NCBI GenBank assembly: GCA_035577985.1
Contig: DATJZY010000025.1
Location: 66,229-130,228 of the forward strand
Source: Candidatus Eiseniibacteriota bacterium
GTDB lineage: Bacteria > Desulfobacterota > Binatia > DP-6
Direction: 5' to 3'
DNA length: 64,000 nucleotides
How positions within the stretch are numbered: position 1 is the first letter of the stretch; the number at the start of each line of letters is the position of its first letter. This document shows, piece by piece, positions 5,158 to 58,799 of the stretch. Position numbers and translations under genes: made by a program. Below the pieces are notes generated by a model. It saw nothing but the letters and a program-made list of their open reading frames with translations. It did not search any database and was not told the origin of the DNA.

Positions 5158-5301
5158 TCGGTCCATCACCCGCGGGCGCGCGATGCTGCCACGGTGCGAT
5201 ATCCGCCACAAGACTCCGTCCACGATCTTTCGCATTCGCACGCGCACGCACCAAATGCCCGGCTGGGATGAGCTTCAACCGCGTGGCAGATTCGCCCGCC
5301 G

Positions 5302-10928: not shown

Positions 10929-10992
10929 CCCCCCGGGGACACCCCGCCGAGGGCGCTTCTACGGGACGACGCAGGAGTGCTAGTACCTGCGC

Positions 10993-26700: not shown

Positions 26701-27108
26701 AGCGGCATCGATCCGGTCACGGACGGGGCCGTGTTCCAGGTCTTCAACGATGCGGGCACGGGGGACTCGGCCTGCTTCGATCTTCCCGCGGCCGGATGGA
26801 CGAGGAAGGGCAAGCCGGCCAAGCCGACGTTCCGCTATCGGGACAAGAAGTTCGCGATGGGTCCCTGCAGCCTCACGACCGTCCAGGACGCCAAGTCGCT
26901 CGTGGTCGTGTGTCAGGCGAAGGTGCGGCCGATCGACTACTCGCTCGACCAGCCCGCACAGCAGCGGGTGGGCGTGCGCTTTCGCAGCGGCGGTACCGAG
27001 TACTGCACGGTCTTCGGGGGCAAGGTCCTGAAGGACAAGCAGAAGACAAAGTTCCGGGCGAAGAACGCGCCGGCGGCGTGTCCGGCGGCGCCCGTCGCCT
27101 GTCCCTGA
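23740..27108 (+). CDS. Giant secreted multidomain protein: right-handed beta-helix (ending CDIGAYE) + Myxococcus-type Cys-rich repeat + about 10 beta-propeller repeats + Thr-rich linker + C-terminal domain
   Basis: Signal peptide MTKPLSIAALWVALLLPRPIVA; GGGIANDGGGTMTIVDSAIVGNTTTGNAGAGI beta-helix repeats; PDANPCTDDVCDALGAC; repeats SPDGKSLYxxSxxDDAVARFDRDxxTGALTYQGCITGExESGPxGTGAC. Confidence 0.75.
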   Translation: MTKPLSIAALWVALLLPRPIVAATITVATTDDTNAVACTLRDAITAANTDAVSGACPAGAGDDTIDLSGLGGTILLGAALPGITTNMTLRGPGAHVLTISGQDSVQVFVVTGPTVTISDVTIAHGLAAGSGRGGGVETLAGSVALTLSRVVITLSQGFNGGGIANDGGGTMTIVDSAIVGNTTTGNAGAGILSAHSSTLVLTNTTVAGNTNTGLDRAGAGLLLSRGTATITNCTFANNVGTSTGGWEIMNLVPMEDPVGTLHLKNTIVANQSGHGCLGPITSGGHNLSDDTTCALAGPGDLQGVAAGLSALGDHGGPTPTLALVAGSPAIDAGDAAACPPADQRGVGRPVDGDANGRAGCDIGAYEVGCGDGIPPNSRCAPDANPCTDDVCDALGACQHPTAATGAPCDDGDHCTLGDTCASGVCSAGTTPGCPAVGSLTYRTCITGELETGPAGTNACTQIAGATSVAQHSGLDNLRSVTESADGISLYVTSGNDDAVARFDRDPTTGALAYQGCISGAIETGPTGTSACAQIPSATTAGQSSGLDLPQAIALSPDGKSLYTASLTDDAVARFDRDTATGALTYRDCLTGKSEANDTACTKIPSASSSGIDSGLDSLSALVVSTDGKSLYTVSRDDDAVARFDRDTATGALTYQGCITGETESGPAGTGACVQIGSAASGGANSGLDDLFSLAVSADGKSLYAVSLLDDGVARFARDPGAGALVYQGCISGEIESGPTGTGACAQIGAAASSGVNSGLDALYAIVVSPDDKSVYTVSQEDDAVDRFDRDPGNGALTYQGCITGETESGPAIPIPGTGACVEIASATSRGTNSGLDKLRSMAASPDGTSLYVASPQDDTIAHFVRDPMSGALTYESCITAEAETGPTGTNACAQIPSATSFGTNSGVDNPQAFLVSPVGLQLYTSSGNDAAVARFDREPEPPPTTTTTTLPGQAIRGKLLLIVDGTDAKKRKIVFKAKDASIDTSAGSGIDPVTDGAVFQVFNDAGTGDSACFDLPAAGWTRKGKPAKPTFRYRDKKFAMGPCSLTTVQDAKSLVVVCQAKVRPIDYSLDQPAQQRVGVRFRSGGTEYCTVFGGKVLKDKQKTKFRAKNAPAACPAAPVACP

Positions 27109-27186
27109 GCTGCGCGCAGGGCCTCGCGATCCTCACCGCGCGCCTGCCCTTTCTGCTTGCCCGCGAGGGGGATCCGGATAGGCTGT

Positions 27187-28059
27187 ATGGAGGTGAGACG
27201 TCGCCCCGGAATCGCGCTGTCCCTCATCGCTCTCGCCGCCGTGGCTCTCGGGCCGCGGCGGGCGGCCGCCGCGCCGATCCAGCCGGCGCTGCCGGCCTAC
27301 GCGATTCTCGGGGTCGCGAACGTGATGCTGCGCCCGCAGGTGCGCGTGCAGTCGGGCTCCGTCGCGTCCGCGGGCGGTGAGCTGCGCCTCGCGGCGCACG
27401 TCACCGTTTCCGGCAGCGCCGTCGCCGACGTCGTGCGCATGGGCAACGGCGCGAAGGTCGATCCGATCTTCTGTCGCCTGGTGACGGGCGCCGTGTTCGG
27501 GCGCGGCGTGGTCGGCGGCCCGTCGGTTCAGGGCGCGACCGTACCCGCGTGCCAGCCGCTCGTAGCGCCGGTCGTCGACCCGGCGCTCCTCGCGCCCGTG
27601 GCCGTGACGCCGGGAACGACGGACGTGCGCGTGCCGGCGCGCACCGGCACGGCGCCGTATCCGCCGGGCAGCTACGGGGCGATCGTCGTCGGTCCCGGCT
27701 CGCTCCTGCAGCTCGCGGGTGGCGACTTCCAGGTGAGATCCATCACGATCGCCCCCCGGGGGCGAGTCGTGTGCGCCGACCTGTGCCGCATCGGCGTGCT
27801 CGAGAGCGTCGTCCTGCGGCGGGGCGCGCAGATCGGCGCGGCGGCCCCGATGCGGGCGCACAACGCGCGCATCGACATCGCGGGCGGCTCCGACGTGCCG
27901 GTCTTCGTCGCGGGCGCGCAGAGCACCGTCGCCGCGACCATCTTCGCCCCTGCGGGCGACATCGTGCTCGGACGCGCCGGGTCGTTTCGCGGCGCGTTCG
28001 TCGGTCGTACCGTGAAGGTGAAGCCACGCGCCACCGTGCGCGGCGACAGCGCGCTCTGA
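27187..28059 (+). CDS. Hypothetical secreted protein
   Basis: MEVRRRPGIALSLIALAAVALGPRRAAAAP signal peptide; Ala/Gly/Val-rich beta-type sequence; no assignable family. Confidence 0.5.
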   Translation: MEVRRRPGIALSLIALAAVALGPRRAAAAPIQPALPAYAILGVANVMLRPQVRVQSGSVASAGGELRLAAHVTVSGSAVADVVRMGNGAKVDPIFCRLVTGAVFGRGVVGGPSVQGATVPACQPLVAPVVDPALLAPVAVTPGTTDVRVPARTGTAPYPPGSYGAIVVGPGSLLQLAGGDFQVRSITIAPRGRVVCADLCRIGVLESVVLRRGAQIGAAAPMRAHNARIDIAGGSDVPVFVAGAQSTVAATIFAPAGDIVLGRAGSFRGAFVGRTVKVKPRATVRGDSAL

Positions 28060-28099: not shown

Positions 28100-30184
28100 G
28101 TGCGCGTCGGGCTCCGAGCCGTTGCCGCGGCTGCCGCCGGCTACGCGATCGTCGCGTACTGGACGTTCCGGCCGACGCCGTCCGGCCTCGCGCACACGAT
28201 CCCCGCGTTCTCGGGGCTCGCCGGCGATGCGCTGTTCCATACCTGGGGGACGAACCACGTCTCCCGCACGATCCTCGTCGATCCGCTCCACCTCTTCGAA
28301 GCCGGCATCTTCCATCCGGCCAGGCACACGCTCGCCTACGGCGACCACATGATCGGCGAAGGGCTCCTCGGCCTGCCGATCTGGCTCGCGACCGGCAATC
28401 CGCTGCTCGAGTTCAACCTGCTGACGCTCGCCTCCTTCGTGCTCTGCGCGACGACGGCGTTCCGGTATCGTCGCGAGACGGGCGGCGGCCTCGCAGGCGC
28501 CGTCGCGACGGGGCTCGTGTTCTCGTTCACGCCGTTTCGGCTGAACTCGCCGATGTGGCCCCAGGTGCTGCTCACGTTCGCGATGCCGCTCGCGGTCGCC
28601 GCGTGGCTGCGCTGGGTGCAGGGCGGACGCGGGCGCGACCTCGCTGCGTGGGTCGGCTGGTGGGTCGTGCACTCGCTCATGGGCATGTACCTCGCCTTCT
28701 ACTTCGCGGTCGTGATGGGGGTCCTGGCGCTCGCGGCGATCGCGATCGCGCCCGCCGGCGGCCGCGCGCGCATCGCGCGCGGAACGGTGATCGCAGGTCT
28801 CGGAACCGCCGCGCTGCTCGCGCCGACCCTGTGGCCGTACGTCGTCCTGCGGGCAACGCAGAGCCACGTCCGTACGGCAGGTCTCGGGACGCAGTGGACC
28901 TTCCTTCTGCCGGGGCCGGGGACCTTGAGCGGCACGCTCGCCGGCTTCGACGGCCGGATCGGCGACGCGATCGTGTCCTTCGGACCCGGCCTGCTCACGA
29001 GTGCGCTCGTCGCGGCCGGCCTCGTGGTCGCGCGCCGGCGTGCGGCGACGTCCTGGGAGCGGTTCGTCTGGGTCGCGAACGTGCTCGGGCTCGCGATCGC
29101 CCTCGCGATCATGTTCGTGCCGATCGAGCTGCAGCTCCGCCTGCCCGGCTTCGACATGATGCGGATGACGAACCGCGCCTTCCACGTCGGCCTCCTGTTC
29201 GCCGCCTGGTTCGCCGGGGCTGCCGTCGACGCCGTCGTCGCGCTCGGGCCGGCGCGCGTGCCGCGCGTCGCCATCGCGACGATTCTCGTGGCGTTGCTCG
29301 CCCTCGACGCCGGCGCCGCGCCGACCGAGCGCCGGCGCATGCCGGTCGCGTCGGACCTGCCGCCAATCTACGAGGCCGTCCGCGGGCTGCCCGATCGCGT
29401 GCTGTACGAGCGCACCGACGAGATCGAGGGCGCAGCGCGCGCCCTCTACTTCTCCATCTTCCACGGCAAGGCGCTGGTGAACGGGTACAGCGGCTTCACC
29501 AGCCCCGGCCCCACGTTCGCGGTCCAGCGCCTGTTCGAGTTCCCCGCCGAACCCGCGCGCGCGCTCCTCGCGACACTCGGCGTGCACGCCGTCCTCGTCC
29601 GCGACATCTCGCCCGCCGCGCTCGATCGGCGTCTGGCGGCGCTGCCCAGCACGGGTACGCAGATCGTCGCCCGCGACGGTGCCGCCGCGCTCGTGCGTGT
29701 CGACGAGCCGGCGCCGAGCCCGCCGCCGGCGGCCGTCCCGCTCGCGCGCGCGGGACGGGCGCTCAGCGCAAGCGGCAACCGGGAGGCCCTCGCCGCCCTC
29801 GAGGACGACGACCCGCGAACCGTCTGGCAGCTCGCGGTCGAGCGCGGCGCCGTCCCGTCGCTCACGATCGACCTCGGCGTCGCCCGCATGGTGGCCGGCG
29901 TGCGCTGCGTCGGCGGCTCGCTCGACTCCGTCGGCGTCTACCTCGCCGACGTCGAGACGTCGGTCGACGGCACCGAGTGGACGCCGACCGGCGCGCGCTT
30001 CGACCCCGACTCGCTCCCGGCGCTGTTCGCGCATCCGGCGGACGTCCGCTGGTGGGACGCGCGCTTCACGCCCCGTCCCGCCCGCTGGGTGCGGCTGACG
30101 AACGCCCGCCTCGGCAACCGCACCGGCACGTGGGAGCTGGCCGAGGTGGACGTGTTGACGCTCGCGGAGGGATCGTCCCGGTGA
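28100..30184 (+). CDS. Polytopic membrane protein, GT-C-like (YfhO/PMT-like topology) with C-terminal discoidin (F5/8 type C)-like domain
   Basis: More than 10 predicted TM helices in the N-terminal 400 aa with a first-loop acidic motif (AYGDHMIGEG); C-terminal DDDPRTVWQ...WVRL discoidin-like region. Confidence 0.5.
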   Translation: MRVGLRAVAAAAAGYAIVAYWTFRPTPSGLAHTIPAFSGLAGDALFHTWGTNHVSRTILVDPLHLFEAGIFHPARHTLAYGDHMIGEGLLGLPIWLATGNPLLEFNLLTLASFVLCATTAFRYRRETGGGLAGAVATGLVFSFTPFRLNSPMWPQVLLTFAMPLAVAAWLRWVQGGRGRDLAAWVGWWVVHSLMGMYLAFYFAVVMGVLALAAIAIAPAGGRARIARGTVIAGLGTAALLAPTLWPYVVLRATQSHVRTAGLGTQWTFLLPGPGTLSGTLAGFDGRIGDAIVSFGPGLLTSALVAAGLVVARRRAATSWERFVWVANVLGLAIALAIMFVPIELQLRLPGFDMMRMTNRAFHVGLLFAAWFAGAAVDAVVALGPARVPRVAIATILVALLALDAGAAPTERRRMPVASDLPPIYEAVRGLPDRVLYERTDEIEGAARALYFSIFHGKALVNGYSGFTSPGPTFAVQRLFEFPAEPARALLATLGVHAVLVRDISPAALDRRLAALPSTGTQIVARDGAAALVRVDEPAPSPPPAAVPLARAGRALSASGNREALAALEDDDPRTVWQLAVERGAVPSLTIDLGVARMVAGVRCVGGSLDSVGVYLADVETSVDGTEWTPTGARFDPDSLPALFAHPADVRWWDARFTPRPARWVRLTNARLGNRTGTWELAEVDVLTLAEGSSR

Positions 30185-32463
30185 CGAGGGGCGCGACCGC
30201 ACGCGCCGTCGTCGTCGACTGCGCGGCGTACGTCGCGATCTTCGGGGTCCTCGCGGCGCCGTGGCTCGCCCGCGCCGCGACGGCGCTGCCGAGCGACATC
30301 GCGTCGCGCGACGCGTGGTTGATCCTCTGGGTGCTCGACTGGGGCACCCACGCGCTCGCGACGTCGCCCGCCAAGCTCTTCGACCCACCCGTCAACTATC
30401 CGGCCCTGGCGCAGCTCGCCGGCTCCGAGCACTTCCTCGCGTGGCAGATCCTCTTCGCGCCGCTGCGCGTGCTCACGGGTAGCGCCTTCGTCGCGGCGAA
30501 TCTCACCGCGTGGGTGTCGTATCCCCTCGCCGCGCTCGCCATGGAGCGCTGCCTCGTCGGCTTCGGCGTCGCGCGTGCGCCCGCGTTCGCGCTGGGCTTC
30601 GTCTACGGCGTCGGATGGGGCTCCATGGGGACGCTCCACGTACTGCAGTACTCGCACGTGTGCCTGCCGCTCGTCGTCCTGGCGCTCCACGCCCTGCGCC
30701 GGCGCCCCGATCCCCCTCGCACGCTGGCCGTGTTCGGCGCGGTCGGGTTCGCCCTGTTCTCCTCGTACCACATGGCCGTCTACGTGGGGCTCGTCGCGCC
30801 CGTGTGGACCGCCGCCGAGCTCCTCCGACCGGGCCCCGGGCGCTGGCGGTTCGCCGCGCTCGCGGCCGGCGCGGGTCTCGCGGCGCTCGCGCTCCTGTTG
30901 TGGGTGTCGGGCCCCTATCTCACGCGACCCGAGACGGCGGGCGACACGGAGCTGGTGGAGAGCGAGGCGGGCACGGCGCATCTCGCGGGGGCGCCGCCGC
31001 TGCTCGTGCGGGAGTCGTCCTCGGTGCCCGAGCTCGTCGCGAGCATCGCGGGTTGCGTCGCCGGTGCGGGCCATCTCCACCCGTGCATGCGGGCGGTCGG
31101 CGAGGCGCCGTTCGCCTGGCACCTCGCGCTGCCAAACCTCGTCCTGGGCTCGCTCGCGCTGGTCGGGATCGTGAGCGCGTTCGTGGCCCGCCGCCGTCGT
31201 CTCGAGGTCGTGGCGGCGCTCGCCGTCGCGTGCCTCGGTGCGCTCGCCGTCGAACCGCTCGCGGTCCACGTGCTCGGCTTCGACGTTCCGCTGCTCGCCA
31301 CCTGGCTCACGTGGACACCGGCGCGCTTCATCCGCGCGTCGTACCGCGCGCTCGTCATGACGTTCTTCGGCACGTCACTGGTCGCGGGAATCGGGCTCGA
31401 CGCGGCATGGTCGCGGCTCGGCGCGCGGCGCGCCGCCGTACCGGCGCTGATCGTGTGCCTGCTCGTCGCCGTGCGGCTCGCGCCGCTGCCACCCGGCGCC
31501 GCGGCCGAACGCCGGCTCGACGGCGTGACCCGCTGGTCGCGCCTGGCACCGGCGAAGTACCTGACCACGCCCGCGCTCGACCGCGACGCGGACGCGTATC
31601 GCGCGGTCGCGGCGTTCGTCGCGCGCGAAGGGTCCGGGCCTCTTCTCGAATGGCCGAGCGGCATCGGAGATCCGGCAGCCACGGTCGCACAGATGATCCA
31701 TCGCCAACCGAGCATCCGGTTCTTCACGGGCTACGTGCCGCTGCACCTCCTGCTCGTCGAGAGCTTGATCGGGCGCCTCCCGGATACGGACGCGCTCGAC
31801 GACCTGGTCGACATGACCGGGCTGCGGTGGATCCTCGTCCGCCCGCCGTATCAGTGGCGCCAGCCCGCGCGGTACGCCGCCGATCTCGATCGGCTGGTGC
31901 ACAGCCCGCGCGTGCGCCGCTCCCTCCTCATGGACCCGTTCATCCTGGTCGAGCTCGATCCCAGCTCGCGACACCCGGCCTGGTTCCGGGCCGTCGCGAG
32001 CGGCGTGGAGCGCGACCATACGGTCCTCGGTACCCCGGTCGTCATGGTACGAAGCGGTCGCGCGGGGGTCGTCGCCGGGGCGCGCGGCACGGTGTCCGTC
32101 GGGCGGCGGCTCCCGGTCACCGTCGAGGTCACGAACCGCGGCAGTGCCGGGTGGCCGGCGGCGCTGCCGGGGCGACCCGTCGACGGCGTGCTCACCGTGC
32201 GCCTGTTCGCGCGCTGGGTCGGGGCCGACGGTCACAGCGAGGACCTGCCGGCCGAGCGCCTGCGGCGAGACGTGCCCGCGGGCGAGACCCTGCGCCAGAC
32301 AGTGATGCTGCCGGCGCCGCGCGAGCCCGGCAGCTATCGGCTCGAGGTCGGCGTCGAGCAGGTGGGCGGCGCCGACCTGTCGTCGCCGCAGAATCCGATC
32401 AGCATCCCCGTCGAGGTCGAGGCCCGCCGCGACGGCGCTGGTGCGAGCGACGAGCCGGGCTAG
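30181..32463 (+). CDS. Polytopic membrane protein, tandem paralog of 28100..30184 (GT-C-like)
   Basis: GTG 30181 overlapping the upstream TGA (GTGA); similar hydrophobic architecture; part of track ORF 28555..32463, whose 5' portion is an out-of-gene extension. Confidence 0.45.
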   Translation: MTRGATARAVVVDCAAYVAIFGVLAAPWLARAATALPSDIASRDAWLILWVLDWGTHALATSPAKLFDPPVNYPALAQLAGSEHFLAWQILFAPLRVLTGSAFVAANLTAWVSYPLAALAMERCLVGFGVARAPAFALGFVYGVGWGSMGTLHVLQYSHVCLPLVVLALHALRRRPDPPRTLAVFGAVGFALFSSYHMAVYVGLVAPVWTAAELLRPGPGRWRFAALAAGAGLAALALLLWVSGPYLTRPETAGDTELVESEAGTAHLAGAPPLLVRESSSVPELVASIAGCVAGAGHLHPCMRAVGEAPFAWHLALPNLVLGSLALVGIVSAFVARRRRLEVVAALAVACLGALAVEPLAVHVLGFDVPLLATWLTWTPARFIRASYRALVMTFFGTSLVAGIGLDAAWSRLGARRAAVPALIVCLLVAVRLAPLPPGAAAERRLDGVTRWSRLAPAKYLTTPALDRDADAYRAVAAFVAREGSGPLLEWPSGIGDPAATVAQMIHRQPSIRFFTGYVPLHLLLVESLIGRLPDTDALDDLVDMTGLRWILVRPPYQWRQPARYAADLDRLVHSPRVRRSLLMDPFILVELDPSSRHPAWFRAVASGVERDHTVLGTPVVMVRSGRAGVVAGARGTVSVGRRLPVTVEVTNRGSAGWPAALPGRPVDGVLTVRLFARWVGADGHSEDLPAERLRRDVPAGETLRQTVMLPAPREPGSYRLEVGVEQVGGADLSSPQNPISIPVEVEARRDGAGASDEPG

Positions 32464-36582: not shown

Positions 36583-38265
36583 ATGTACGAGACGTTCTTC
36601 GGTCTCGGCGACGCGCCGTTCCGGCTGACGCCCGACCCGCGCTACCTCTTCCTGTCGAAGAAGCACGAGGACGCCCTCGCGCACCTTCGCCTCGGCCTCA
36701 CCGAGAGCGGCTTCGTCTGCATCACCGGCGACGTCGGCACCGGGAAGACGACGCTCCTGCGTCACTTCCTCGCGAACCTCGGGCCCGACGTCTCGACCGC
36801 GTACGTCTTCAATCCGTCCCTGTCGGCGCTCGAGCTGCTGCAGACGATCAACGCCGAGTTCGGCCTGCCCGCGTCGAACACGAGCAAGAAGGCCCTCACC
36901 GACCTGCTGAACGCGCATCTGCTCAAGCTGCGCCAGGAAGCCCGGCGCGCCGTCGTCATCATCGACGAGGCCCAGGCCCTCGACATCGACGTGCTGGAGC
37001 AGCTCCGGCTGCTCTCGAATCTCGAGACGCCGACCGAGAAGCTCCTGCGCATCATCCTGGTCGGGCAGCCACAGCTCCGCGGCCTGCTGCAGCATCCCGA
37101 GCTGGTGCAGTTGAACCAGCGCATCACGCTGCGCTGGCACATCGGCCCCCTCTCGGCGGCGGAGACCAGCGCCTACGTGCGCCATCGCCTCTCGGTGGCG
37201 AGCCACGCCAAGGCGCGCGATCTCTTCACCCGCCGCGCGCTGGCACTCGTCCATCGCTACTCGGGCGGCGTGCCGCGTCTCACCAACATGCTCGCGCATC
37301 GCGCACTGCTCGCCGCGTTCGCCGCCGAGCGCCAGCGCGTCACGGCGCGCGACGTGCGCAAGGCGTACCGCGAGGTGTCGACGGTGCCGCTGCCGGGGGC
37401 GCGGCGTCGCTCGTGGCTCGTCCCGGCGATCGTGACCGCGACCGCCGCCGGAGCGCTCATCGCCATCGGCGCCCGCCGGCTCGCGCCGCCGCCCGAGTCG
37501 CCGGCCCCGACCGTGACCGCGCCGAGCACGGGTCCGCTGCTCGCGAACATCACCGCAGACACGCCCCAGCCTGGCGAGAACCTGGCGGCGATGACGACGA
37601 CGTCGACCACGGTGCCGGCGCCCTCGCCCGAGCAGCGGCTCACGGCCATGGACGGCGCCGCGACCCTCCACGGCGCGCTCGGCGCCATCGCGCGCGCCTG
37701 GCAGAAGCCCGGACCGGCCGACGACGACCGGCAGGAAGCCGACCTCGCGCGCTTCGCCGAACGGCGCGGCCTCGAGGACCTGGCGATCACCGGCAACCTC
37801 GCCATGCTGCGCCTCATCGACGTGCCCGCCGTGCTCGAGCTTCGCTTCCCCGGCGCTCCGGACCCGCGCTGGGCGGCGCTGGTCGCGCTCGAGCCCGACC
37901 GTGCCACGCTCGCCGTGGACGGCGAGCCGGTGGTCGTCGAGCCTGCCTTCCTCGAGCGCTACTGGTACGGCCGCGCCCACGTGTTCTCGCCCGACTTCGA
38001 AGGGCTGGGGCCGGGTGCGATCGCGGTCGACGCGCGCGGCGCCCGCGTCATCCGGCTCCAGGCCCTGCTCGGGCGTACCGGCCTCTACGACGGCGGCGAG
38101 ACGGGTTTGTTCGGCCCGACGACGCGCACGGCGGTCACGGCCTTCCAGCGCTCGCGGTACATCGAGCCCGACGGACAGGTCGGGAAGCTGACGCGCATGG
38201 TGCTCTACGCCGCCGTCGGCGGCTACCACCGCCCGACGCTCGTCGGCGGCGGGAGCACTTCGTGA
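36583..38265 (+). CDS. gspA: ExeA/GspA-like AAA ATPase with C-terminal peptidoglycan-binding domain
   Basis: N-terminus FFGLGDAPFRLTPDPRYLFLSKKHEDALAHL, Walker A GDVGTGKTTL, Walker B VVIIDEAQ; C-terminal PG_binding_1-like repeat (LQALLGRTGLYDGGETGLFGPTTRTAVTAFQ). Confidence 0.75.
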   Translation: MYETFFGLGDAPFRLTPDPRYLFLSKKHEDALAHLRLGLTESGFVCITGDVGTGKTTLLRHFLANLGPDVSTAYVFNPSLSALELLQTINAEFGLPASNTSKKALTDLLNAHLLKLRQEARRAVVIIDEAQALDIDVLEQLRLLSNLETPTEKLLRIILVGQPQLRGLLQHPELVQLNQRITLRWHIGPLSAAETSAYVRHRLSVASHAKARDLFTRRALALVHRYSGGVPRLTNMLAHRALLAAFAAERQRVTARDVRKAYREVSTVPLPGARRRSWLVPAIVTATAAGALIAIGARRLAPPPESPAPTVTAPSTGPLLANITADTPQPGENLAAMTTTSTTVPAPSPEQRLTAMDGAATLHGALGAIARAWQKPGPADDDRQEADLARFAERRGLEDLAITGNLAMLRLIDVPAVLELRFPGAPDPRWAALVALEPDRATLAVDGEPVVVEPAFLERYWYGRAHVFSPDFEGLGPGAIAVDARGARVIRLQALLGRTGLYDGGETGLFGPTTRTAVTAFQRSRYIEPDGQVGKLTRMVLYAAVGGYHRPTLVGGGSTS

Positions 38266-39209
38266 GCTCGATCCTCGACGCGCTCGAGAAGCTCGAGGCG
38301 ACGGGCGGGCCGCAGCCGCCCGGTGGCGGCGGAGGCGGCGACCCCGGGCGCCGGCCGCCGTGGCTGATCGCCGTCCTCGTCGTCGCGGCGATCGCTGCAG
38401 GCGCCGGCACGACGATGCTCATCCGCAGCCGGGCGGCGGCACCTCCCCAGCCGGAAGCGGTCGTCGCAGCCGTGGCCTCGACGACGATGCCCGTACCGAC
38501 GACGATGGCGGCGCCGACGACCGTCGCGCCTCCGACGACGATCGCGCCCCCCACGACGGTCGCGGTGCCGACGACGCTCGCGGAGACGACCACGCTCGCG
38601 GTGACGACGACGCTCGCCGTCACGACCACGGTCGCCGCGGCGACGACGACGCTCGTGGCCACCACGACGACCGTCGTCTCGACCACGGAGCCGGCGGCGA
38701 CGACGACCAGCAGCACGTCGCCGGCAGCGCAGGCGCCGCCGCCCACGACGGCCCCGGTCGCCGCGGCGCCTCCCGCGCCCGCGCCAGCTCCTCCCGTGCC
38801 CGCGCCGACCGGCGACGCGCACGACCGTCCGTTTGCCGCAACGCAGGAGGCGGCGCCCGGAGCGACGCCGACGACGACCGTGCCCGCCACCGTCGCGCGT
38901 CCGGCGCCCACCACGCCCACGACGCTCGCGGCGGCGCCCCCGCCTCCCGCACCCGCTCCGCCGCCCGCCGAGCCGCCCCCTCCGGTGCGCACGCGGCCGC
39001 CCACCGGTGCGCCGCGCCTGCGCGTCAGCTTCCTCGTCTACTCGACGACGCCCGCGCGCCGCACCGTCGCGCTCACGATCGGCGACGCGGGGCTGACGAC
39101 GCTGCGCGAGGGCGAGGAGGCCCAGGGCATCCAGGTGATCCGCATCCACCCCGACCGCGTCGAGCTGAAATGGCAGGGGGAGCCGTTCACGCTCGAGATT
39201 CGCGGCTGA
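38262..39209 (+). CDS. gspB: GspB/ExeB-like protein with Thr/Pro/Ala-rich low-complexity periplasmic region
   Basis: GTG overlapping gspA stop (GTGA); N-terminal SSILDALEKLE resembles the GspB N-terminus; single TM; about 200 aa of PTTxAx repeats. Confidence 0.5.
   Translation: MSSILDALEKLEATGGPQPPGGGGGGDPGRRPPWLIAVLVVAAIAAGAGTTMLIRSRAAAPPQPEAVVAAVASTTMPVPTTMAAPTTVAPPTTIAPPTTVAVPTTLAETTTLAVTTTLAVTTTVAAATTTLVATTTTVVSTTEPAATTTSSTSPAAQAPPPTTAPVAAAPPAPAPAPPVPAPTGDAHDRPFAATQEAAPGATPTTTVPATVARPAPTTPTTLAAAPPPPAPAPPPAEPPPPVRTRPPTGAPRLRVSFLVYSTTPARRTVALTIGDAGLTTLREGEEAQGIQVIRIHPDRVELKWQGEPFTLEIRG
38497..38660 (+). repeat. Intragenic tandem 18-bp (6-codon) repeat, about 9 copies, encoding PTT[VIL]A[PV]
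   Basis: CCGACGACGATGGCGGCG / CCGACGACCGTCGCGCCT / CCGACGACGATCGCGCCC ... read directly. Confidence 0.7.
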
Positions 39210-52906: not shown

Positions 52907-54018
52907 CGGGGCCCCTCGCCGGCATCCGCGTGCTCGACCTCGCCGACCAGACGGGCGCGTTCGCCGGCAAGCTGCTCGCGGGCCTCGGCGCCGACGTCGT
53001 CCTCGCCGAGCCGCCGGGCGGGAGCCCGCTCCGCACGATCCCGCCCTTCTGGCAGGGCGCGCCCGACCCGGAGCGGAGCCTCTTCTTCTGGTTCTACGCC
53101 GCCGGCAAGCGAAGCGTGGTCGCCGATCCCGCGCAGACGGCCGCGCTCGCGGCCGCCGCCGACGTCGTCGTCGAAACGGGCTTCCCGAGCCGTGCCGACG
53201 CGTGGCGTGCCGCGCACCCGCGCCTCGTCGTCGCCTCGATCACGCCGTTCGGGCACGCGGGGCCGTACCGCGAGTGGCGCTCCTCGGACACCGTCGCGCA
53301 GGCGATCGGCGGGCTCGCGCACGTGAACGGCCATCCCGACGGGCCGCCGCTCCGCGCGCTCGGCCTCCAGGCCTATCACCAGGCCGGCGTCTTCGCGGCG
53401 ATCGGCGTCCTGGCGGCGCTCCTCGCGCGCGAGACGTCGGGACGCGGCCAGCTCGTCGACGTGAGCCTCGAGGCCGCGGTCGCGGGATCGCTCGAGCACG
53501 TGCCCGGCTTCTTCCACCAGAGCGGGCTCGTGGCGCGCCGGCAGGGGACGCTGCACTGGACGCGGTTCTTCCGCGTCGGGCGCTGCAAGGACGGCTGGGT
53601 CATGCACTGCACGCTCGGCGACTGGACGTCGCTCTTCGAGTGGATGCGCGCCGACGGCTTCGGCGCCGCGTTCGAGGATCCCGCCTTCGAAGGGACGATG
53701 CACCGCCAGAAGAACGCCGAGGCCCTGTTCGACGAGCTGGATCGCTGGGCCGCCGGCTACACGGTCGCCGAGCTCTACGAGGGTGCGCAGCTCCGGCGGC
53801 TGCCGTACGCCGCCGTGCGGCCGCCCGAGGCGCTGCTCGCCGATCCGCACCTCGCCGAGCGCGGCTTCTTCGTGCCGATCGAGCACCCCGACCTCGGCCT
53901 GACGCTCCCGTATCCCGGCGCGCCCTTCGTCATGAGCGAGACGCCGTGGCGCGTCGCGCGGCCACCGCGCGTGGACGAGCACGGCCCCCAGGTGCACCGC
54001 GACTGGCGCGTCACCTGA
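52903..54018 (+). CDS. Family III CoA-transferase (CaiB/BaiF)
   Basis: GTGA overlap with viaA stop; N-terminus GPLAGIRVLDLADQTGAFAGKLLAGLGADVV typical of CaiB/BaiF. Confidence 0.8.
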   Translation: MTGPLAGIRVLDLADQTGAFAGKLLAGLGADVVLAEPPGGSPLRTIPPFWQGAPDPERSLFFWFYAAGKRSVVADPAQTAALAAAADVVVETGFPSRADAWRAAHPRLVVASITPFGHAGPYREWRSSDTVAQAIGGLAHVNGHPDGPPLRALGLQAYHQAGVFAAIGVLAALLARETSGRGQLVDVSLEAAVAGSLEHVPGFFHQSGLVARRQGTLHWTRFFRVGRCKDGWVMHCTLGDWTSLFEWMRADGFGAAFEDPAFEGTMHRQKNAEALFDELDRWAAGYTVAELYEGAQLRRLPYAAVRPPEALLADPHLAERGFFVPIEHPDLGLTLPYPGAPFVMSETPWRVARPPRVDEHGPQVHRDWRVT

Positions 54019-54916
54019 CCGCGGTCCAGCGAAACGGCGCCAGGAGCTGCCCCGTCCAGGTGGTCGGGAAGCGCGGCATGCCGGCGATGCCGACGGGGCC
54101 CGCGAAACCACGATCACGCGGCCGGAAGAAGGTGCCGAACACGAGATCCCACGTGATCAGGATCGCGCCGTAGTTCGCGTTGCCTTCGCGCGGGTCGGTC
54201 GAGTGATGCCAGCGATGGAGCTCCGGTGTGCTGAAGAGCCAGCTCGCGACGCCCGAGCGGAGGTCGACGTTGCAGTGCTGGAGCTGTCCGTAGCAGGACG
54301 AGAAGATCGAGTAGAGCAGGAAGACGCGCGGCGGGATGCCGAGCAGGAAGAGCGGCAGCGTCTGGCAGGCGACCAGCGCCGCGAGGTCGAGCGGATGGAA
54401 GCGCGTCGCGTTCAGCCAGTACAGACGCGGTGCGCTGTGGTGGACGGCGTGGAGCCGCCATGCCCACGCGCGCTCGTGCGTCACGCGGTGGAACCAGTAG
54501 TGCCCGAACTCCGCGATGAGAACGGCCAGGAAGAGCTGCGCGGCGATCGGCAGCGCGGACGGCCAGAGCCCGGTGCCGAGCCGGTTCGCCAGCCATGGGG
54601 AGCACACGACCGCCAGGCCACCGGCGACGGCCAGGCCGAGCTGGCTCGCCGCCGTCCCCGTGACGACGAGGTGCGTGACGTCGGTGCGCACGTCGCCGTG
54701 GGCGCGGCCCCACTCGGCGCGATGCGGGAATGCGCGCTCGAGCCCGGCGATGAGCGCGTACGTGACGATGAGGAACGCCACGTACACCGCACCGTCGATG
54801 GCCGGTGTGCGGGGCGCGTCAGGCGCGGTCGCCCAGATCGCGATCGCGGCCGTGCCGATCGTGAAAGCGGGGAAGAGCCCCCACGCGACGGCGGCTCGGA
54901 GCGCGCGATCCACCAC
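54011..54916 (-). CDS. Fatty-acid hydroxylase/sterol desaturase superfamily membrane protein
   Basis: Three His boxes HYWFHRVTHE, HAVHHS, HRWHHS within a polytopic region; start inferred as GTG about 54916 (no in-frame ATG); track fuses it with unrelated upstream frame 54011..56815. Confidence 0.65.
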   Translation of the reverse strand: MVDRALRAAVAWGLFPAFTIGTAAIAIWATAPDAPRTPAIDGAVYVAFLIVTYALIAGLERAFPHRAEWGRAHGDVRTDVTHLVVTGTAASQLGLAVAGGLAVVCSPWLANRLGTGLWPSALPIAAQLFLAVLIAEFGHYWFHRVTHERAWAWRLHAVHHSAPRLYWLNATRFHPLDLAALVACQTLPLFLLGIPPRVFLLYSIFSSCYGQLQHCNVDLRSGVASWLFSTPELHRWHHSTDPREGNANYGAILITWDLVFGTFFRPRDRGFAGPVGIAGMPRFPTTWTGQLLAPFRWTAVR

Positions 54917-54921
54917 CGGCG

Positions 54922-56799
54922 TCAGCCGAGGGCGGCGAGCAACTGCTTCAGATCGTCGTAGATGGATCGTGTTTCGCCCAGCAGCGGCATCCGCGTTGCG
55001 TCGGGAATGATCTTCCGGGCGGATCGCGATTTCAAGCGGTGCTGGAGGGTGCTCAGGCGCCTGACCGCCTTCTTCACGACGTTTTTCTGCTTCTTCGCCC
55101 CACCGAGGCCTTCGGCTGCCTGCAGCTTCTCGCGCACCTTCGCCGCGATCATGACGAGACCGTTCTGCAGTCGCCCCAGGTCGCTCGCGGCCTGCAGCCG
55201 CGTCACGAGGGCGTCGAGCCGGCATTCGATCGACTCGAAGGTCGCAACGGCTCGGCAGCCCGGGAGCGTCGTGGTGCTCGTCGTGGTCGACGTCGACGTC
55301 TCGCAGGTCTCCAGTGGATCGGGGGCCCGCTCGTAGGATCCGATGTCGCACCGCTTCCCCACGGGTCGCGTGACTCCACGCTGGTCGACGATCTCGCACG
55401 CGTCGCCACCGCTGCCGACCGGTCCGGGGCTTCCCGCTTCGATCGCCGGGCTGCACGACAGAAGGACGTGCAGCGCCGTCGGACCTCCTTCCACGACGGC
55501 GAGCTCGTCGAGCATCGGATCGACACCCGTGACGTCGCCCGGGCCTGCGAGCCGACTGCAGTCGGCCGAGTTCTCGATGAGCGAGTAGCCGTCCGATACC
55601 AGCGTCTGCGGGTTCCCGACCGATTCCGTGAAGCAGTCGGGTCCGGCGGTGGGGAGCGGCGGGTCTGCGGTCGTGGTGTTGTCCGCAATGATCGTGTTCC
55701 GAACGTGGAAGGTCCCTGAATCGAGGGCGACTCCTCCGCCACGTGCTGCGGGTACGGTCCCGACGAGCGGCAGCGGCGGCGATCTGTCGACGGCATTGCG
55801 TGCGATGGTGACGTTGCTGAGGCTCCACGACCCTCCGCCCTGCGCCGAGATCCCGCCGCCCTCGGCGCGTCCCAACCAGTCGACGAATACGGCGTTCGAG
55901 CTGATCGTGCTGTTGACGATCGTGAAGGTGGCGCCGCCCGCCTCGCCAATGCCGCCTCCGAGGCCGTCGCCGTTCGGGACGGAGATCGTGTTGCCGACGA
56001 TGGTCGAACGCTCGATCGTCCAGGTGGCCATTCCCCGATCCGAGATGCCGGCACCCTCGGCGTTTGCGTCGATCGAACCGGCTGTGTTCCCACCGATCGT
56101 CGACTCGACGATGGTGACGTTCGCGGGAGCGCTCGCCGAAATGCCCCCTCCATAGACCGACCCCGTCGACACCGTCACGGAGTTGACCACGAGCCGACTG
56201 CGCGTGATCGTGACCGTCGCGGCGGCGGACAGCTGGATCGCGCCACCCTCGGCCGCTTGGTTGTTGCTGAAGCTGGAGTCCGTGATCGCTACGCTCGGGC
56301 TCGCTCCCGCTACGAAGAGTCCGCCGCCGAGACACCCGTCGCCGCAGCGGTTGGCGTTGACCTGGCTGCTCACGAGCGCGAGCTTTCCGCCATCGACCCG
56401 GATGCCGCCGCCATGATCGCCAGGCTCCGTCAGGCGACCGCCCATCAGCACGACGTGCTCGAACGTCAGATCGCCCGACGGTGCGACCTCGACGATGCGA
56501 AACGAAGCCACTGCGCCCGGCGCCCGCGCGATGCTGGAATCCGGCCCGCCGCTCACCGATGCCGATCCGACGATCGTGATCTTGCTGGTGACGACCGGCA
56601 GCCCATTTACCCCGTTGTCCGCTGCGGGAAGCGAGTAGACCTCTCCGGGTGCGAGGTTGATCGTGTCGTCCTCCGCGCTCGCGTTGGCCGCAGCGATGGC
56701 GGCGACCAGCGCCGGGACGTCGCCCGCCGGAACGTCGACGACCGCAGCTACGGCGGCGCGCGAGACGATCACGGCGATGAGGGCGACGATCGAGCGCAC
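54922..56799 (-). CDS. Secreted right-handed beta-helix protein ending in CDIGSYE motif, Thr-rich linker and Lys-rich C-terminal helical tail
   Basis: Signal peptide MRSIVALIAVIVSRAAVA; repeated GG..NT/NS..I/V beta-helix rungs; CDIGSYE; TSTSTTTSTTTLPG; KKQKNVVKKAVRRL tail. Confidence 0.75.
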   Translation of the reverse strand: MRSIVALIAVIVSRAAVAAVVDVPAGDVPALVAAIAAANASAEDDTINLAPGEVYSLPAADNGVNGLPVVTSKITIVGSASVSGGPDSSIARAPGAVASFRIVEVAPSGDLTFEHVVLMGGRLTEPGDHGGGIRVDGGKLALVSSQVNANRCGDGCLGGGLFVAGASPSVAITDSSFSNNQAAEGGAIQLSAAATVTITRSRLVVNSVTVSTGSVYGGGISASAPANVTIVESTIGGNTAGSIDANAEGAGISDRGMATWTIERSTIVGNTISVPNGDGLGGGIGEAGGATFTIVNSTISSNAVFVDWLGRAEGGGISAQGGGSWSLSNVTIARNAVDRSPPLPLVGTVPAARGGGVALDSGTFHVRNTIIADNTTTADPPLPTAGPDCFTESVGNPQTLVSDGYSLIENSADCSRLAGPGDVTGVDPMLDELAVVEGGPTALHVLLSCSPAIEAGSPGPVGSGGDACEIVDQRGVTRPVGKRCDIGSYERAPDPLETCETSTSTTTSTTTLPGCRAVATFESIECRLDALVTRLQAASDLGRLQNGLVMIAAKVREKLQAAEGLGGAKKQKNVVKKAVRRLSTLQHRLKSRSARKIIPDATRMPLLGETRSIYDDLKQLLAALG

Positions 56800-56954
56800 G
56801 CTCCTCCCTACTCACGGCTCCCGCCGAGGTGTCAACGCTTTTCTGCTCGACGTGTCACGATCGGCACAGGCCCAGGGCAAAAAGGGATGCACGGCTTGTA
56901 ACGCCTCCCGAGCCACGGGATGGTGCCGAACGCTTCGATGGAGCGTGGGATCGC

Positions 56955-58799
56955 ATGATCAGCCTGGTTCGACCACCGTGCGACGAGGGCGTCGTCCGCG
57001 GCGCACCCGAGACGCCCGGATGTGCCTCGCACGCCAAACGCTGGGTCCTGCTGGCGACCATACTGGGCTCGAGCGTCGCGTTCCTCGAGGCGTCGGTGAT
57101 CAACGTCGCCCTGCCCGCCATCCAGACGGCGCTCGGCGCCTCGATGGCGGGGATGCAGTGGGTCGCCAGCGCGTACACGCTCCTGCTCGCCGCGCTGACC
57201 CTGGCCGGCGGCGCGGCGGGTGACCGCTTCGGCACGCGACGCCTGTTCGCGGCGGGGACGGCCATCCTCGGCCTCGCCTCCGTCGGGTGCGGGCTAGCGA
57301 CGACGTCGTCGCAACTGATTGCGGGCCGTGCGATCCAGGGCTGCGGCGCCGCGCTGCTCGTGCCGAACAGCCTCGCGCTTCTCAGCGCATCGTTTCCGAC
57401 TGCCGAGCGCGGCCGCGTGATCGGCACCTGGTCCGCCTTCACCGCCCTCACGGGCGCCGTGGGCCCGATTCTCGGAGGGTGGCTCGTCGACCTGGTGTCG
57501 TGGCGGGCCGGATTCCTGTCGATCGTGCCGCTCGCGATCGCGACCCTGGTGGTGACACACCTGCGCGTGCCGGACCCGCCGCGGCGACGGGTCGTGCGCG
57601 CGGTCGACTGGTGGGGAGCCGCGCTCGCGACGGCGGGGCTCACGGGCTTCGTCTTCGCGATCATCGCGTCCGGGTCGAGCGGGACGCCGCCGGGGCTGCC
57701 GATCGCCGCCCTCGTCGTCGGGATCGCCGGTGTCGCCGGCTTCGCGGTCCTCGAATCGCGGTCGCAAGCGCCCATGGTCCCGCCGGCGTTGTTTCGTTCG
57801 GGGACGTTTCGCGGCGTGAACCTGCTCACCTTGCTGCTGTACTTCGGGGTGAGCGCGGCCTTCTTCGTGCTCCCCTTCAACCTGATCCAGGTCCAGGGCT
57901 ACTCCGCGACGCTGACGGGCGCGGCCTATCTCCCGTTCGCCCTCCTCGTCGGCGGGCTGTCGCGCTCGGTCGGCACGCTCGGCGATCGACTCGGCGTGAA
58001 GCCGCTCCTCGTCGTGGGGCCCCTCGTCGCCGCCGCCGGCCTCGCCCTGTTCGCGTTGCCGCGCATCGGCGGGTCGTATTGGACGACCTTCTTCCCGCCC
58101 ATGCTGCTGACGGGCATCGGGATGGCGCTCACCGTCGCACCGCTGACCTCGACGGTCATGGGAACGGTCACCCCGAGCGAGGCCGGCGTCGCCTCCGGCG
58201 TCAACAACACGGTCGCGCGTGTGGCGGCGCTGCTCGCCGTCGCGATCGTCGGCACGCTCACCCTGCCGCTGTTCTCCCGGGCCCTCACCCGCCGGCTCGA
58301 GCCGGTCGCCGTGACACCGGCGGTCCGCCAATTGCTCCTCGCCGAGCGTCGCAGCCTGGCCGACATCGCGATCCCCGCGTCGATCGCCGGCAGCGAGCGG
58401 CCGGTGCTCCAGCGCCTCGTCGGCGACGCGTTCGTCGAGAGCTTCCAGTGGGTCGCCATCATCAGCGCGTGCTGCGCGCTCGCAGGTGCGATCGGCGCCG
58501 CTGCGTTGATCCAGGTCGTCGCACCCGCCGGCGCGGACGACGCGACGGCGGCGTGTGGCCACCTGGATCAGATCCGCGAGCTGCCGGTCGGTGAGCTGAG
58601 CTGCCCGGAGTGCCTGGCCCGTGGAGACGCGTGGGTCCACCTCCGGCTCTGCCTCACCTGCGGGCACGTCGGGTGCTGCGACTCGTCGAAGAACCGTCAC
58701 GCGTCGGCGCACTTCTGGGCCACCAGGCACCCGATCGTCCGGTCGCTGGAGCCCGGCGAGGATTGGCGCTGGTGCTACGTCGACGAGATCGTCGTGTAG
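56955..58799 (+). CDS. MFS transporter (14-TM, DHA2/EmrB-like) fused to C-terminal UBP-type zinc-finger (zf-UBP) domain
   Basis: MFS motif A region (GDRFGTRR), 14 hydrophobic segments; C-terminus CPECLARGDAWVHLRLCLTCGHVGCCDSSKNRHASAHF...WRWCYVD matches zf-UBP Cys/His pattern. Confidence 0.75.
   Translation: MISLVRPPCDEGVVRGAPETPGCASHAKRWVLLATILGSSVAFLEASVINVALPAIQTALGASMAGMQWVASAYTLLLAALTLAGGAAGDRFGTRRLFAAGTAILGLASVGCGLATTSSQLIAGRAIQGCGAALLVPNSLALLSASFPTAERGRVIGTWSAFTALTGAVGPILGGWLVDLVSWRAGFLSIVPLAIATLVVTHLRVPDPPRRRVVRAVDWWGAALATAGLTGFVFAIIASGSSGTPPGLPIAALVVGIAGVAGFAVLESRSQAPMVPPALFRSGTFRGVNLLTLLLYFGVSAAFFVLPFNLIQVQGYSATLTGAAYLPFALLVGGLSRSVGTLGDRLGVKPLLVVGPLVAAAGLALFALPRIGGSYWTTFFPPMLLTGIGMALTVAPLTSTVMGTVTPSEAGVASGVNNTVARVAALLAVAIVGTLTLPLFSRALTRRLEPVAVTPAVRQLLLAERRSLADIAIPASIAGSERPVLQRLVGDAFVESFQWVAIISACCALAGAIGAAALIQVVAPAGADDATAACGHLDQIRELPVGELSCPECLARGDAWVHLRLCLTCGHVGCCDSSKNRHASAHFWATRHPIVRSLEPGEDWRWCYVDEIVV

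Follow-up and report, generated by a model that had tools for sequence, protein, structure and literature searches.

A Thr-stalked, C-terminal four-helix-bundle module in choice-of-anchor Q and other secreted proteins of Candidatus Binatia: a candidate surface anchor

Choice-of-anchor domains, as NCBIfam names them, precede short sorting signals, namely PEP-CTERM, LPXTG or the T9SS domain. Signals of the PEP-CTERM, PGF-CTERM and MYXO-CTERM kinds lie at the C-terminus of many unrelated secreted passengers, with a Thr/Ser-rich spacer ahead of them. Such signals combine a short motif with a single transmembrane helix and a basic tail, and exosortase-type enzymes process them. Our search of the literature for 'choice-of-anchor' found no definition of the concept. 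Within the 64,000-nucleotide stretch of DNA analyzed here, hereafter called the window, two genes designated A and B encode secreted proteins with the choice-of-anchor Q domain (NF041518, curated cutoff 25 bits). No sorting-signal model of NCBIfam matches either protein, such a signal being unnecessary for membership of choice-of-anchor Q. The two proteins also differ from the scheme outlined above in what follows the domain, which in B is a Thr stalk and a folded four-helix bundle of 111 residues, and in A a Cys-rich region with a propeller behind it.

Gene B (54922..56799, reverse strand, as are all features of B given below; GC3 0.84) is an open reading frame for a secreted protein of 625 residues, in which signal peptide, beta-helix, choice-of-anchor Q domain, Thr stalk and four-helix bundle follow each other in this order. 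The predicted signal peptide, read from the sequence, comprises residues 1-19 (MRSIVALIAVIVSRAAVAA; 56743..56799); in an alignment with P0038 it is matched by a hydrophobic N-terminus, immediately ahead of a conserved (V/I)DVPAGDV. P0038 is a full-length, collinear homologue of B (41% identity, E 9e-105) and confirms both the start and the architecture of the gene. The acidic passenger is a right-handed beta-helix of residues ~20-426 (55522..56742), identified by BLASTP to the beta-helix of A, and it leads into the choice-of-anchor Q domain at residues 427-491 (55327..55521; 60.1 bits, E 1.8e-16), at the C-terminal edge of which lies the motif CDIGSYE (residues 484-490; 55330..55350). Then come the Ser/Thr stalk TSTSTTTSTTT (residues 501-511; 55267..55299) and, directly before Cys515, the tripeptide LPG (residues 512-514; 55258..55266), a conserved element that caps the four-helix module at its N-terminus; the hexapeptide TTTLPG thus spans 55258..55275, in the context of TSTSTTTSTTTLP at 55261..55299. 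The remainder of the protein, residues 515-625 (54925..55257), is the basic C-terminal module, which opens with Cys-x10-Cys-Arg-Leu-Asp. A search for related loci with full-length B returned one weak, unrelated locus (L004), with 28% identity over the N-terminus, and B has no exact copy in the assemblies searched.

Gene A (23740..27108, forward strand, as are its features; GC3 0.91) encodes a secreted protein of 1122 residues with a longer succession of parts: signal peptide, beta-helix, choice-of-anchor Q domain, Cys-rich region, propeller, Thr linker and a beta-sandwich module. The choice-of-anchor Q domain (residues 307-367; 24658..24840; 74.0 bits, E 8.5e-21) contains CDIGAYE at residues 360-366 (24817..24837). 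The Cys-rich spacer and the lactonase-like propeller repeats together occupy residues ~368-940 (24841..26559; PF10282 Lactonase, E 1.8e-19), with six repeat marks of the type DDAVARFDRD between residues 496 and 857 and more divergent repeats outside this pattern, for instance NDAAVARFDRE at ~927-937. The linker TTTTTTLPG (residues 944-952; 26569..26595) is followed by a basic, Cys-rich C-terminal module (residues 953-1122; 26596..27105; pI 9.7) that ends in CPAAPVACP and is predicted by AF2 to be an all-beta structure (pLDDT 83.1), for which Foldseek found no fold match in the PDB beyond generic or non-significant ones.

The beta-helices of A and B align with 31% identity over 332 columns (BLASTP, E 2e-18), and their similarity therefore goes beyond low complexity. 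The helix of A reaches the gathering score of PF13229 (30.6 vs 25.9 bits), whereas B has no direct Pfam match for its beta-helix and is assigned through its alignment to A. The pattern CD[ILV]G.[YF]E has only two matches in all six frames of the window, the CDIGAYE and CDIGSYE mentioned above, and it is the C-terminal edge of choice-of-anchor Q; since this domain is already catalogued, the motif adds nothing new, and public records label members of the family 'choice-of-anchor Q domain-containing protein'. In the preliminary description both proteins ended their beta-helix in CDIGxYE and then passed through a Thr linker ending in TTTLPG into different C-terminal modules. The motifs are indeed present in both, and no relationship exists between the C-terminal module of A and that of B, but the proposed order is wrong for A, in which ~578 residues of Cys-rich stretch and propeller separate CDIGAYE from TTTTTTLPG. 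The direct succession of CDIGxYE, Thr linker and C-terminal module is found, of these two proteins, in B only, and what A and B have in common is the homologous beta-helix with its choice-of-anchor Q domain, nothing else.

The third protein of the preliminary description, here called protein C (3166..5247, reverse strand), combines a propeller and an Ig/cadherin-like domain with a helical tail rich in Lys, and matches Lactonase, Big_9 and Cadherin_5. Its propeller is homologous to the middle of A (tblastn, E 1.7e-36). By eye its Lys-rich tail resembles the four-helix module of B, but it is not counted as a member, the 150-member profile of that module giving E 0.33 and hhalign a probability of 33%.

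The C-terminal module of B belongs to no Pfam, NCBIfam or PDB family. AF2 predicts for its 111 residues, with a pLDDT of 95.7, helices at positions 7-23, 25-49, 54-76, 78-83 and 86-110; the module is amphipathic and charged (22 Lys plus Arg, 10 Asp plus Glu; pI 10.6). With a profile made without the linker (A1), we found a family of at least 699 clusters (50% identity) at E<=1e-3, 272 of them at E<=1e-10. Searched with the profile of 150 members, B yields a match of 114.7 bits (E 8.7e-35) at residues 515-625. We define the module by a first helix with Cys-x10-13-Cys-Arg-Leu-Asp, a DLGRL turn, basic helices 2-4, a position at the extreme C-terminus and a Thr run with LPG ahead of the first Cys, all of which are present in B. 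Of 119 members, 104 have no more than 10 residues between the end of the module and the C-terminus; the mean net charge is +9.7 and the pI exceeds 9 in 95% of the members. Among the basic residues of the module, R13, R29, K40, R42, K62, K63 and K82 are conserved. The two invariant Cys near its N-terminus, 11 positions apart and represented in B by Cys515 and Cys526, may form a disulfide. Ahead of the module lie choice-of-anchor Q beta-helices (22 of 84 N-terminal partners), FG-GAP, several propellers, TSP3, LamG, Ig or PKD domains, or no partner at all, as in ~20 stand-alone proteins that are made of a signal peptide, poly-Thr and the module. Family members with a named source come from Candidatus Binatia. 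Thr stalk, LPG(x)C and four-helix bundle form, in our analysis, a C-terminal module that is widespread in uncultured high-GC bacteria and has so far no name. Across eight genomic contexts, its neighborhood shows no conserved gene that could be a dedicated partner.

The module of A has a different distribution. Its 72 homologues, most of which carry it at the C-terminus, combine it with propellers, Cys-rich repeats or Ig domains, or have it alone, and a Thr-rich segment lies upstream in only 3 of 36; the linkers of close relatives are variable and mostly free of Thr. Besides that of A, a single clear Thr-run linker was seen in the A-type relatives, that of P0012, which also ends in TTL(A/P). 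Elsewhere in the window, too, envelope proteins have Thr-rich spacers, for instance the GspB-like protein at 38262..39209.

The statistics of the junction in the B family were obtained with 119 independent members, collected with a profile that excludes the junction itself. At least five Thr are present among the 15 residues before the first Cys in 100 of these 119 members (84%), with the run ending 3-6 residues before this Cys, and the consensus reads TTTT-L-P-G-G-C, with Leu at -4, Pro at -3 and Gly at -2 and -1. The dipeptide LP follows the Thr run in 39% of cases at the junction vs 3% internally, and a tandem paralogue keeps IPDSC behind 14 Gly in place of poly-Thr. TTTLPG in B is best read as a cassette boundary, at which TTT closes the stalk and LPG caps the bundle, while TTTTTTLPG in A is probably a spacer typical of the lineage, set ahead of a different, but also basic, beta-sandwich end-module. 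The exact identity of the hexapeptide in A is explained more loosely, and may reflect a general rule for the ends of Thr runs or an old swap of modules. (Of note, the LPGC of B, residues 512-515, resembles a lipobox of the form L-x-G/A-C, the Cys of which immediately follows the hydrophobic part of a signal peptide. It was rejected as such in B, where it is far from the signal peptide, and also in the stand-alone members, in which the Cys comes after the signal peptide only behind a Thr run of ~10-30 residues and its distance from LP is variable.)

The preliminary description took the linker for a likely recombination joint between exchangeable modules; on this reading C-terminal modules would be swapped at low-complexity DNA coding for Thr, and the hexapeptide would be the shared scar. 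Exchange is supported at the level of families, both C-terminal modules being paired with many different N-terminal partners, and the same hexapeptide in two proteins of the window is not expected by composition (from the residue frequencies of 41 likely proteins of the window, ~4e-5 pairs are expected in which each Thr run continues into LPG); the end of the P0012 linker points in the same direction. The claim of a shared joint finds no support, however, in the behavior of the sequence: Thr run and LPG travel with the four-helix module, even in the stand-alone proteins that have no upstream partner, but are rare ahead of A-type modules, and LP, specific as it is to the junction, behaves as a part of the module. 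Moreover, the joints of A and B use another wobble base in each of the codons for Leu, Pro and Gly (CTG/CTC, CCC/CCG and GGG/GGC, respectively), the flanking DNA shows no similarity, and P0038 keeps the same joint as B, from which it follows that this architecture is old and stable. We thus consider a recombination scar improbable. Much less credible still is that the segments common to A and B are a low-complexity coincidence, which the Thr-rich spacers of other envelope proteins of the window could suggest. The significance of the beta-helix alignment, the scores of both proteins against NF041518 and the recovery of the junction consensus with a profile blind to it all speak against coincidence, which is already refuted for B; the pairwise comparison proposed in the preliminary description came out in favor of homology of the two beta-helices.

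What the module does is suggested by the contrast in charge between the two parts of B: residues 1-492 have a pI of 4.4, within the range of 4.2-4.4 for the passengers of A and B, and are joined to a strongly basic bundle. From this asymmetry, from the restriction of the module to the C-terminus and from the idea behind the choice-of-anchor name, we infer that a flexible stalk most likely tethers the acidic passenger to a domain that is basic and binds to the surface. We read B as a modular surface or secreted protein exported by the Sec route, in which the acidic right-handed beta-helix ends in choice-of-anchor Q with CDIGSYE. The short Ser/Thr stalk would act as an extended flexible spacer, perhaps glycosylated, and the basic bundle would hold the passenger on an anionic component of the envelope, for example LPS or exopolysaccharide, and so supply choice-of-anchor Q proteins of this kind with their 'anchor'. 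Comparison of the predicted module with the PDB by Foldseek returned generic four-helix bundles only, all with E >0.1, and the fold is therefore silent on function; the stand-alone copies show that the module can occur with nothing to tether. More tentatively, the cassette could be a previously unrecognized, lineage-specific system of surface display in Binatia-like bacteria, the missing anchor of choice-of-anchor Q, binding an anionic envelope polymer non-covalently, with stand-alone copies competing for the same sites or capping them. The bundle might instead be a C-terminal domain for export or sorting, recognized and then removed by a dedicated machinery according to a logic like that of the T9SS C-terminal domain; its strict position on hundreds of unrelated secreted passengers, the linker ahead of it, as in many sorting signals, and the ExeA-like and GspB-like genes of the window would fit such a role. 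We judge it unlikely, given that all members examined have N-terminal signal peptides of the Sec type, as read from their sequences, that stand-alone copies would be signals devoid of cargo, that the eight contexts have no neighboring machinery in common, and that no known sorting family matches. A further proposal concerns the stalk itself and is compatible with stalk plus bundle: the Thr tract could be a putative site of O-glycosylation, decorated during or after export by a GT-C protein O-glycosyltransferase, which would stiffen the stalk and shield it from proteases. Ser/Thr-rich, disordered extracytoplasmic regions are O-glycosylated in other bacteria, as described in PMC11092751, and the position of the Thr run is strongly conserved. 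Moreover, a GT-C gene of the PMT_2 family (PF13231) lies convergent to the stand-alone member P0005, 13 nt downstream; this arrangement recurs in three metagenome contigs of the same gene order, two of which span PMT_2 in full and which together count as one syntenic context. As a partner for the whole family PMT_2 was rejected, the seven other contexts having no GT-C neighbor. The preliminary description had invoked GT-C genes nearby, a statement that we could not confirm: the polytopic membrane proteins near A (28100..30184 and 30181..32463) have a topology that fits GT-C enzymes but is undiagnostic, match no family of Pfam, NCBIfam or the PDB and lie 25 kb from gene B, and tblastn with the PMT_2 protein of L001 found no homologue in the window. 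The paralogue with poly-Gly implies that a plain spacer is enough. Glycosylation of the stalk is plausible, if less likely than not, and we retain the anchoring function as our preferred reading.

If anchoring is true, it would explain how large acidic beta-helix and propeller proteins are retained at the cell surface in Candidatus Binatia, an uncultured lineage at the level of phylum whose surface is almost undescribed; if it is false, the module is one more domain of unknown function. In either case, the boundary of the domain can be used to annotate hundreds of proteins now called 'hypothetical' or 'choice-of-anchor Q', and a module of ~110 residues is small enough for expression and for assays of envelope binding.

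Comparison with catalogued systems sets the module apart from each of them. The only catalogued family to match it repeatedly is FIMAH (PF22888), which aligns with the last two helices in 6 of the 10 members of the seed, at profile positions ~15-80 of 81. The best score is nevertheless 20.5 bits vs a gathering threshold of 24.8, all matches falling below it, the module of B itself gives none at E<=5, and the matched region takes in neither the first helix with Cys-x10-Cys-Arg-Leu-Asp nor the Thr run ahead of it, so that FIMAH and the module would be distant relatives at most. (A search of the literature for 'FIMAH' turned up only work on fimA/fimH.) Among known structures, the up-down topology of four helices is shared with Xcc0516 (2gsc), BT_0352 (2rld) and a plant pectin-methylesterase inhibitor (1x8z), with query-normalized TM-scores of 0.74-0.82 at E >0.1 and sequence identities of 8-18% by Foldseek, but the first two of these are cytosolic proteins, and a search of PDB sequences with the module profile gave nothing below E 0.25. 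In arrangement there is a parallel with PEP-CTERM, PGF-CTERM and MYXO-CTERM, since the module likewise occupies the extreme C-terminus of unrelated passengers behind a Thr/Ser-rich spacer. It differs from PEP-CTERM, LPXTG and MYXO-CTERM in that it matches no NCBIfam model, has no hydrophobic helix and is predicted to be a soluble, charged bundle. The outcome is the definition of an unnamed family of C-terminal domains with a sharp boundary of Thr stalk, LPG and Cys.

The two beta-helix proteins compared here, the 1122-residue protein A (gene at 23740..27108, forward strand) and the 625-residue protein B (54922..56799, reverse strand), are both encoded by good coding ORFs, with third-position GC of 0.91 and 0.84, respectively, in a window of 71.5% G+C. 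A six-frame scan for CD[ILV]G.[YF]E returned exactly two matches, CDIGAYE in A (24817..24837, residues 360-366) and CDIGSYE in B (55330..55350); T{3,}LP also had exactly two, TTTTTTLP in A (26569..26592, the Thr run being residues 944-949) and TTTLP in B (55261..55275), with Gly next in both. The positions of the two motifs are therefore those of the preliminary description. The order that it gave for both proteins, namely CDIGxYE, Thr tract and then C-terminal module, is found only in B, since in A CDIGAYE and the Thr run are separated by a Cys-rich stretch and by repeats of a lactonase-like propeller (PF10282, E 1.8e-19; repeat marks).

The region of each protein bearing CDIGxYE corresponds to a known, already catalogued domain, choice-of-anchor Q (NCBIfam NF041518), which matches residues 307-367 of A with 74.0 bits and residues 427-491 of B with 60.1 bits. 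Both scores greatly exceed the 25-bit curated cutoff, and both matches terminate at CDIGxYE. The beta-helices preceding the motif align with 31% identity over 332 columns (BLASTP, E 2e-18), a similarity that goes beyond low complexity, and are homologous as judged from this alignment; A also scores above the Pfam threshold for Beta_helix.

The C-terminal module of B (residues 515-625), hereafter numbered from its first Cys (Cys1, Cys515 in B), matched no Pfam or NCBIfam family. A word-indexed search with linker and module retrieved nine relatives, all having a Thr run and then (L/V)(P/F)G(x)C ahead of the module, and five of the nine, of 144-152 residues, consist solely of signal peptide, Thr run and module. 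To avoid circularity, the linker was left out of a profile beginning at Cys1 (A1), which was searched against 1.84 billion cluster representatives and matched 699 proteins of 96 to 2311 residues with E<=1e-3 (272 with E<=1e-10 and 19 with E<=1e-30). In 104 of the 119 analysable matches, the module ends at most 10 residues from the C-terminus. Its AlphaFold2 model, built on the alignment, is a four-helix bundle (mean pLDDT 95.7, pTM 0.86), for which Foldseek returned only generic four-helix bundles from the PDB, every E-value being >0.1 and the best query-normalised TM-scores (0.74-0.82) belonging to 2gsc, 2rld and the plant PME inhibitor 1x8z; comparison of the module profile with PDB sequences gave nothing below E 0.25. 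The sole recurring catalogued similarity is to Pfam FIMAH (PF22888), in the last two helices of six of the ten seed members, and is sub-threshold (best score 20.5 bits vs a gathering score of 24.8); B's own module has no FIMAH match.

The junction was evaluated in 119 A1 matches outside the seed with at least 25 residues upstream of the module. At least five Thr occur among the 15 residues preceding Cys1 in 100 of these proteins (84%) and TTT within the same interval in 88, while the final TT stops 3-6 residues short of Cys1 in 103. The most frequent residue is Thr at positions -8, -7, -6 and -5 (92, 89, 100 and 79 of 119, respectively), Leu at -4 (44), Pro at -3 (58) and Gly at both -2 (43) and -1 (61); the family consensus is therefore TTTT-L-P-G-G-C, with which TTTLPGC of B agrees. 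A Thr run leading into LP is a specific feature of the junction, as LP comes directly after 39% of 89 junction runs vs 3% of 238 internal runs, the corresponding values for [LVIM][PA] being 62% and 9%. Members without a Thr run have Pro at most six residues from Cys1 in 74% of cases. Two tandem genes of the related ENA contig L008 (8315..9988 and 10001..11860) each encode a C-terminal four-helix module, and in the upstream one, which is GC-rich with delta-60-like repeats, 14 consecutive Gly and then IPDSC replace the poly-Thr stalk. In our reading, the junction consists of a flexible spacer, poly-Thr in most cases, and, after it, a hydrophobic-Pro-Gly cap that is part of the bundle. TTTLPG in B is the signature boundary of a large, undescribed C-terminal domain family.

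Choice-of-anchor Q accompanies the module in 22 of the 84 A1 matches of at least 230 residues, other partners being Beta_helix, Chlam_PMP, TSP_3, FG-GAP_2, Vgb_lyase, PD40, Laminin_G_3, Ig-like, PKD, PPC and lactonase-type propeller domains. CDIGxYE-type motifs were found by regex in 25 of 157 profile-matched sequences, most of which then pass directly to Thr run and module, and about 20 stand-alone members have a clear hydrophobic N-terminal signal sequence with the Thr run immediately after. The 619-residue homologue P0038 aligns collinearly with the whole of B (41% identity, E 9e-105) and likewise proceeds from signal peptide through beta-helix, choice-of-anchor Q and TTTTSTTLPGNC to the bundle; the architecture of B is therefore old, not recently shuffled.

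The corresponding module of A (residues 953-1122) is predicted to be all-beta (pLDDT 83.1) and matches neither a PDB fold nor a Pfam family. Most of its 72 relatives from a profile search have it at the C-terminus, ending CPxxPxxCP, and it lies behind propellers, Cys-rich repeats or Ig-type domains, or alone following a signal peptide. Only three of the 36 relatives with sufficient upstream sequence are Thr-rich there, and the linkers of A's closest relatives are PEPPITAALPVTGK, EPSASAVPIGGK or a long Thr/Ser tract ending TTLAPDRVSGQK; in the A-type family, a Thr linker is thus inserted occasionally and does not belong to the fixed parts.

From amino-acid composition, the number of Thr-run pairs expected in the window with LPG after each run is about 4e-5, and the presence of TTTLPG in both A and B therefore calls for an explanation. 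In B, the family consensus provides it. In A, the motif may represent a general way in which Thr spacers finish ahead of a folded domain, the sole other clear Thr-run linker among A-type relatives ending TTLAP (P0012), or it may be the trace of an old swap. The proposal that the linker is a recombination joint between exchangeable modules is not supported by the DNA, which reads ...ACCACGACGCTGCCCGGGCAG in A and ...ACCACGACGCTCCCGGGCTGC in B, with third bases differing in all Leu, Pro and Gly codons and no similarity in the flanks, nor by the age of B's architecture documented by P0038. Nothing at sequence level indicates a recent exchange between the two joints. The preliminary description is partly confirmed, TTTLPG being real for B and incidental, or at most loosely related, in A.

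Gene A is preceded by the gene of a small protein with a lipobox-like LATGC (23189..23743, forward strand), whose stop overlaps its start by 4 nt, and just after it lies the gene of a 300-residue secreted DUF7305 protein (27157..28059, forward strand); these two and gene A may be a single operon. The gene that directly follows B on the reverse strand encodes a fatty-acid hydroxylase family membrane protein (54014..54925, start provisional; PF04116, E 4.6e-31), and divergent from B is that of an MFS transporter with a C-terminal zf-UBP zinc finger (56829..58799, forward strand; PF02148, E 7e-12), an unusual fusion. In a 693-residue secreted protein (3166..5247, reverse strand), a lactonase-like propeller with homology to the central part of A is combined with a Big_9/Cadherin_5 domain and a helical tail that is rich in Lys and contains a Cys pair; this tail resembles the four-helix module, but no relationship between them was detected (HMM E 0.33; hhalign probability 33%). 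The ExeA-like ATPase (AAA_22 + PG_binding_1; 36583..38265, forward strand) scores 274 bits with TIGR03015, the PEP-CTERM-associated ATPase model, below the cutoff of 324.5 bits. The GspB-like protein encoded after it (38262..39209, forward strand) has a long Thr/Pro-rich spacer with TTTLAV repeated, and spacers rich in Thr are therefore a general feature of the envelope proteins in this genome.

O-glycosylation of the Thr stalk, also raised in the preliminary description because of GT-C genes nearby, is possible. This modification is described for Thr-rich extracytoplasmic disordered regions of other bacteria (PMC11092751), and in one context of the family (6001..8004 of L001) a PMT_2 (GT-C) gene lies 13 nt past, and convergent to, that of P0005, a stand-alone protein of signal peptide, poly-Thr and four-helix bundle. 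This gene order is common to L001, L002 and L003, the last contig terminating inside the PMT_2 gene, and a fourth contig has the same upstream gene. However, no GT-C gene adjoins the family in seven further contexts (around B in the window and at L005, L006, L008, L009, L011 and L012), the window contains no PMT_2 homologue, and the poly-Gly variant of L008 shows that a bare spacer can suffice. The putative GT-C genes originally meant are probably two adjacent ones for polytopic membrane proteins (28100..30184 and 30181..32463, forward strand) with 7-8 hydrophobic segments and large C-terminal soluble parts, which lie directly downstream of gene A and the DUF7305 gene, 25 kb from B, and match no GT-C family or solved structure, nor any Pfam, NCBIfam or PDB family; a sub-threshold F5/8 type C match is seen in the first, and alignment of one with the other is weak but collinear (25% identity, E 0.13). 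Glycosylation is possible but unsupported by linkage.

In public records, the members of the two module families that bear an organism name derive from MAGs labelled Candidatus Binatia bacterium (P0118, P0136, P0216, P0226) and from one labelled Candidatus Eisenbacteria, and the G+C of 68-73% in four related loci checked resembles that of the window. The four-helix module has a mean net charge of +9.7 (n=150 members) and a pI >9 in 95%; the pI is 10.6 for that of B and 9.7 for the beta-sandwich module of A, and the passengers are acidic (4.4 in B and 4.2 in A). A and B thus have a common design of acidic passenger, spacer and basic end-domain. Combined with signal sequences at the N-terminus, an invariant pair of Cys and the strict C-terminal position, this design indicates an extracytoplasmic location, where the basic end-domain would serve as a tether by binding an anionic envelope component. 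Such a tether would match the idea behind the name 'choice-of-anchor' in NCBIfam usage. What results for this obscure lineage is a domain definition of practical use, not a system of a new kind.
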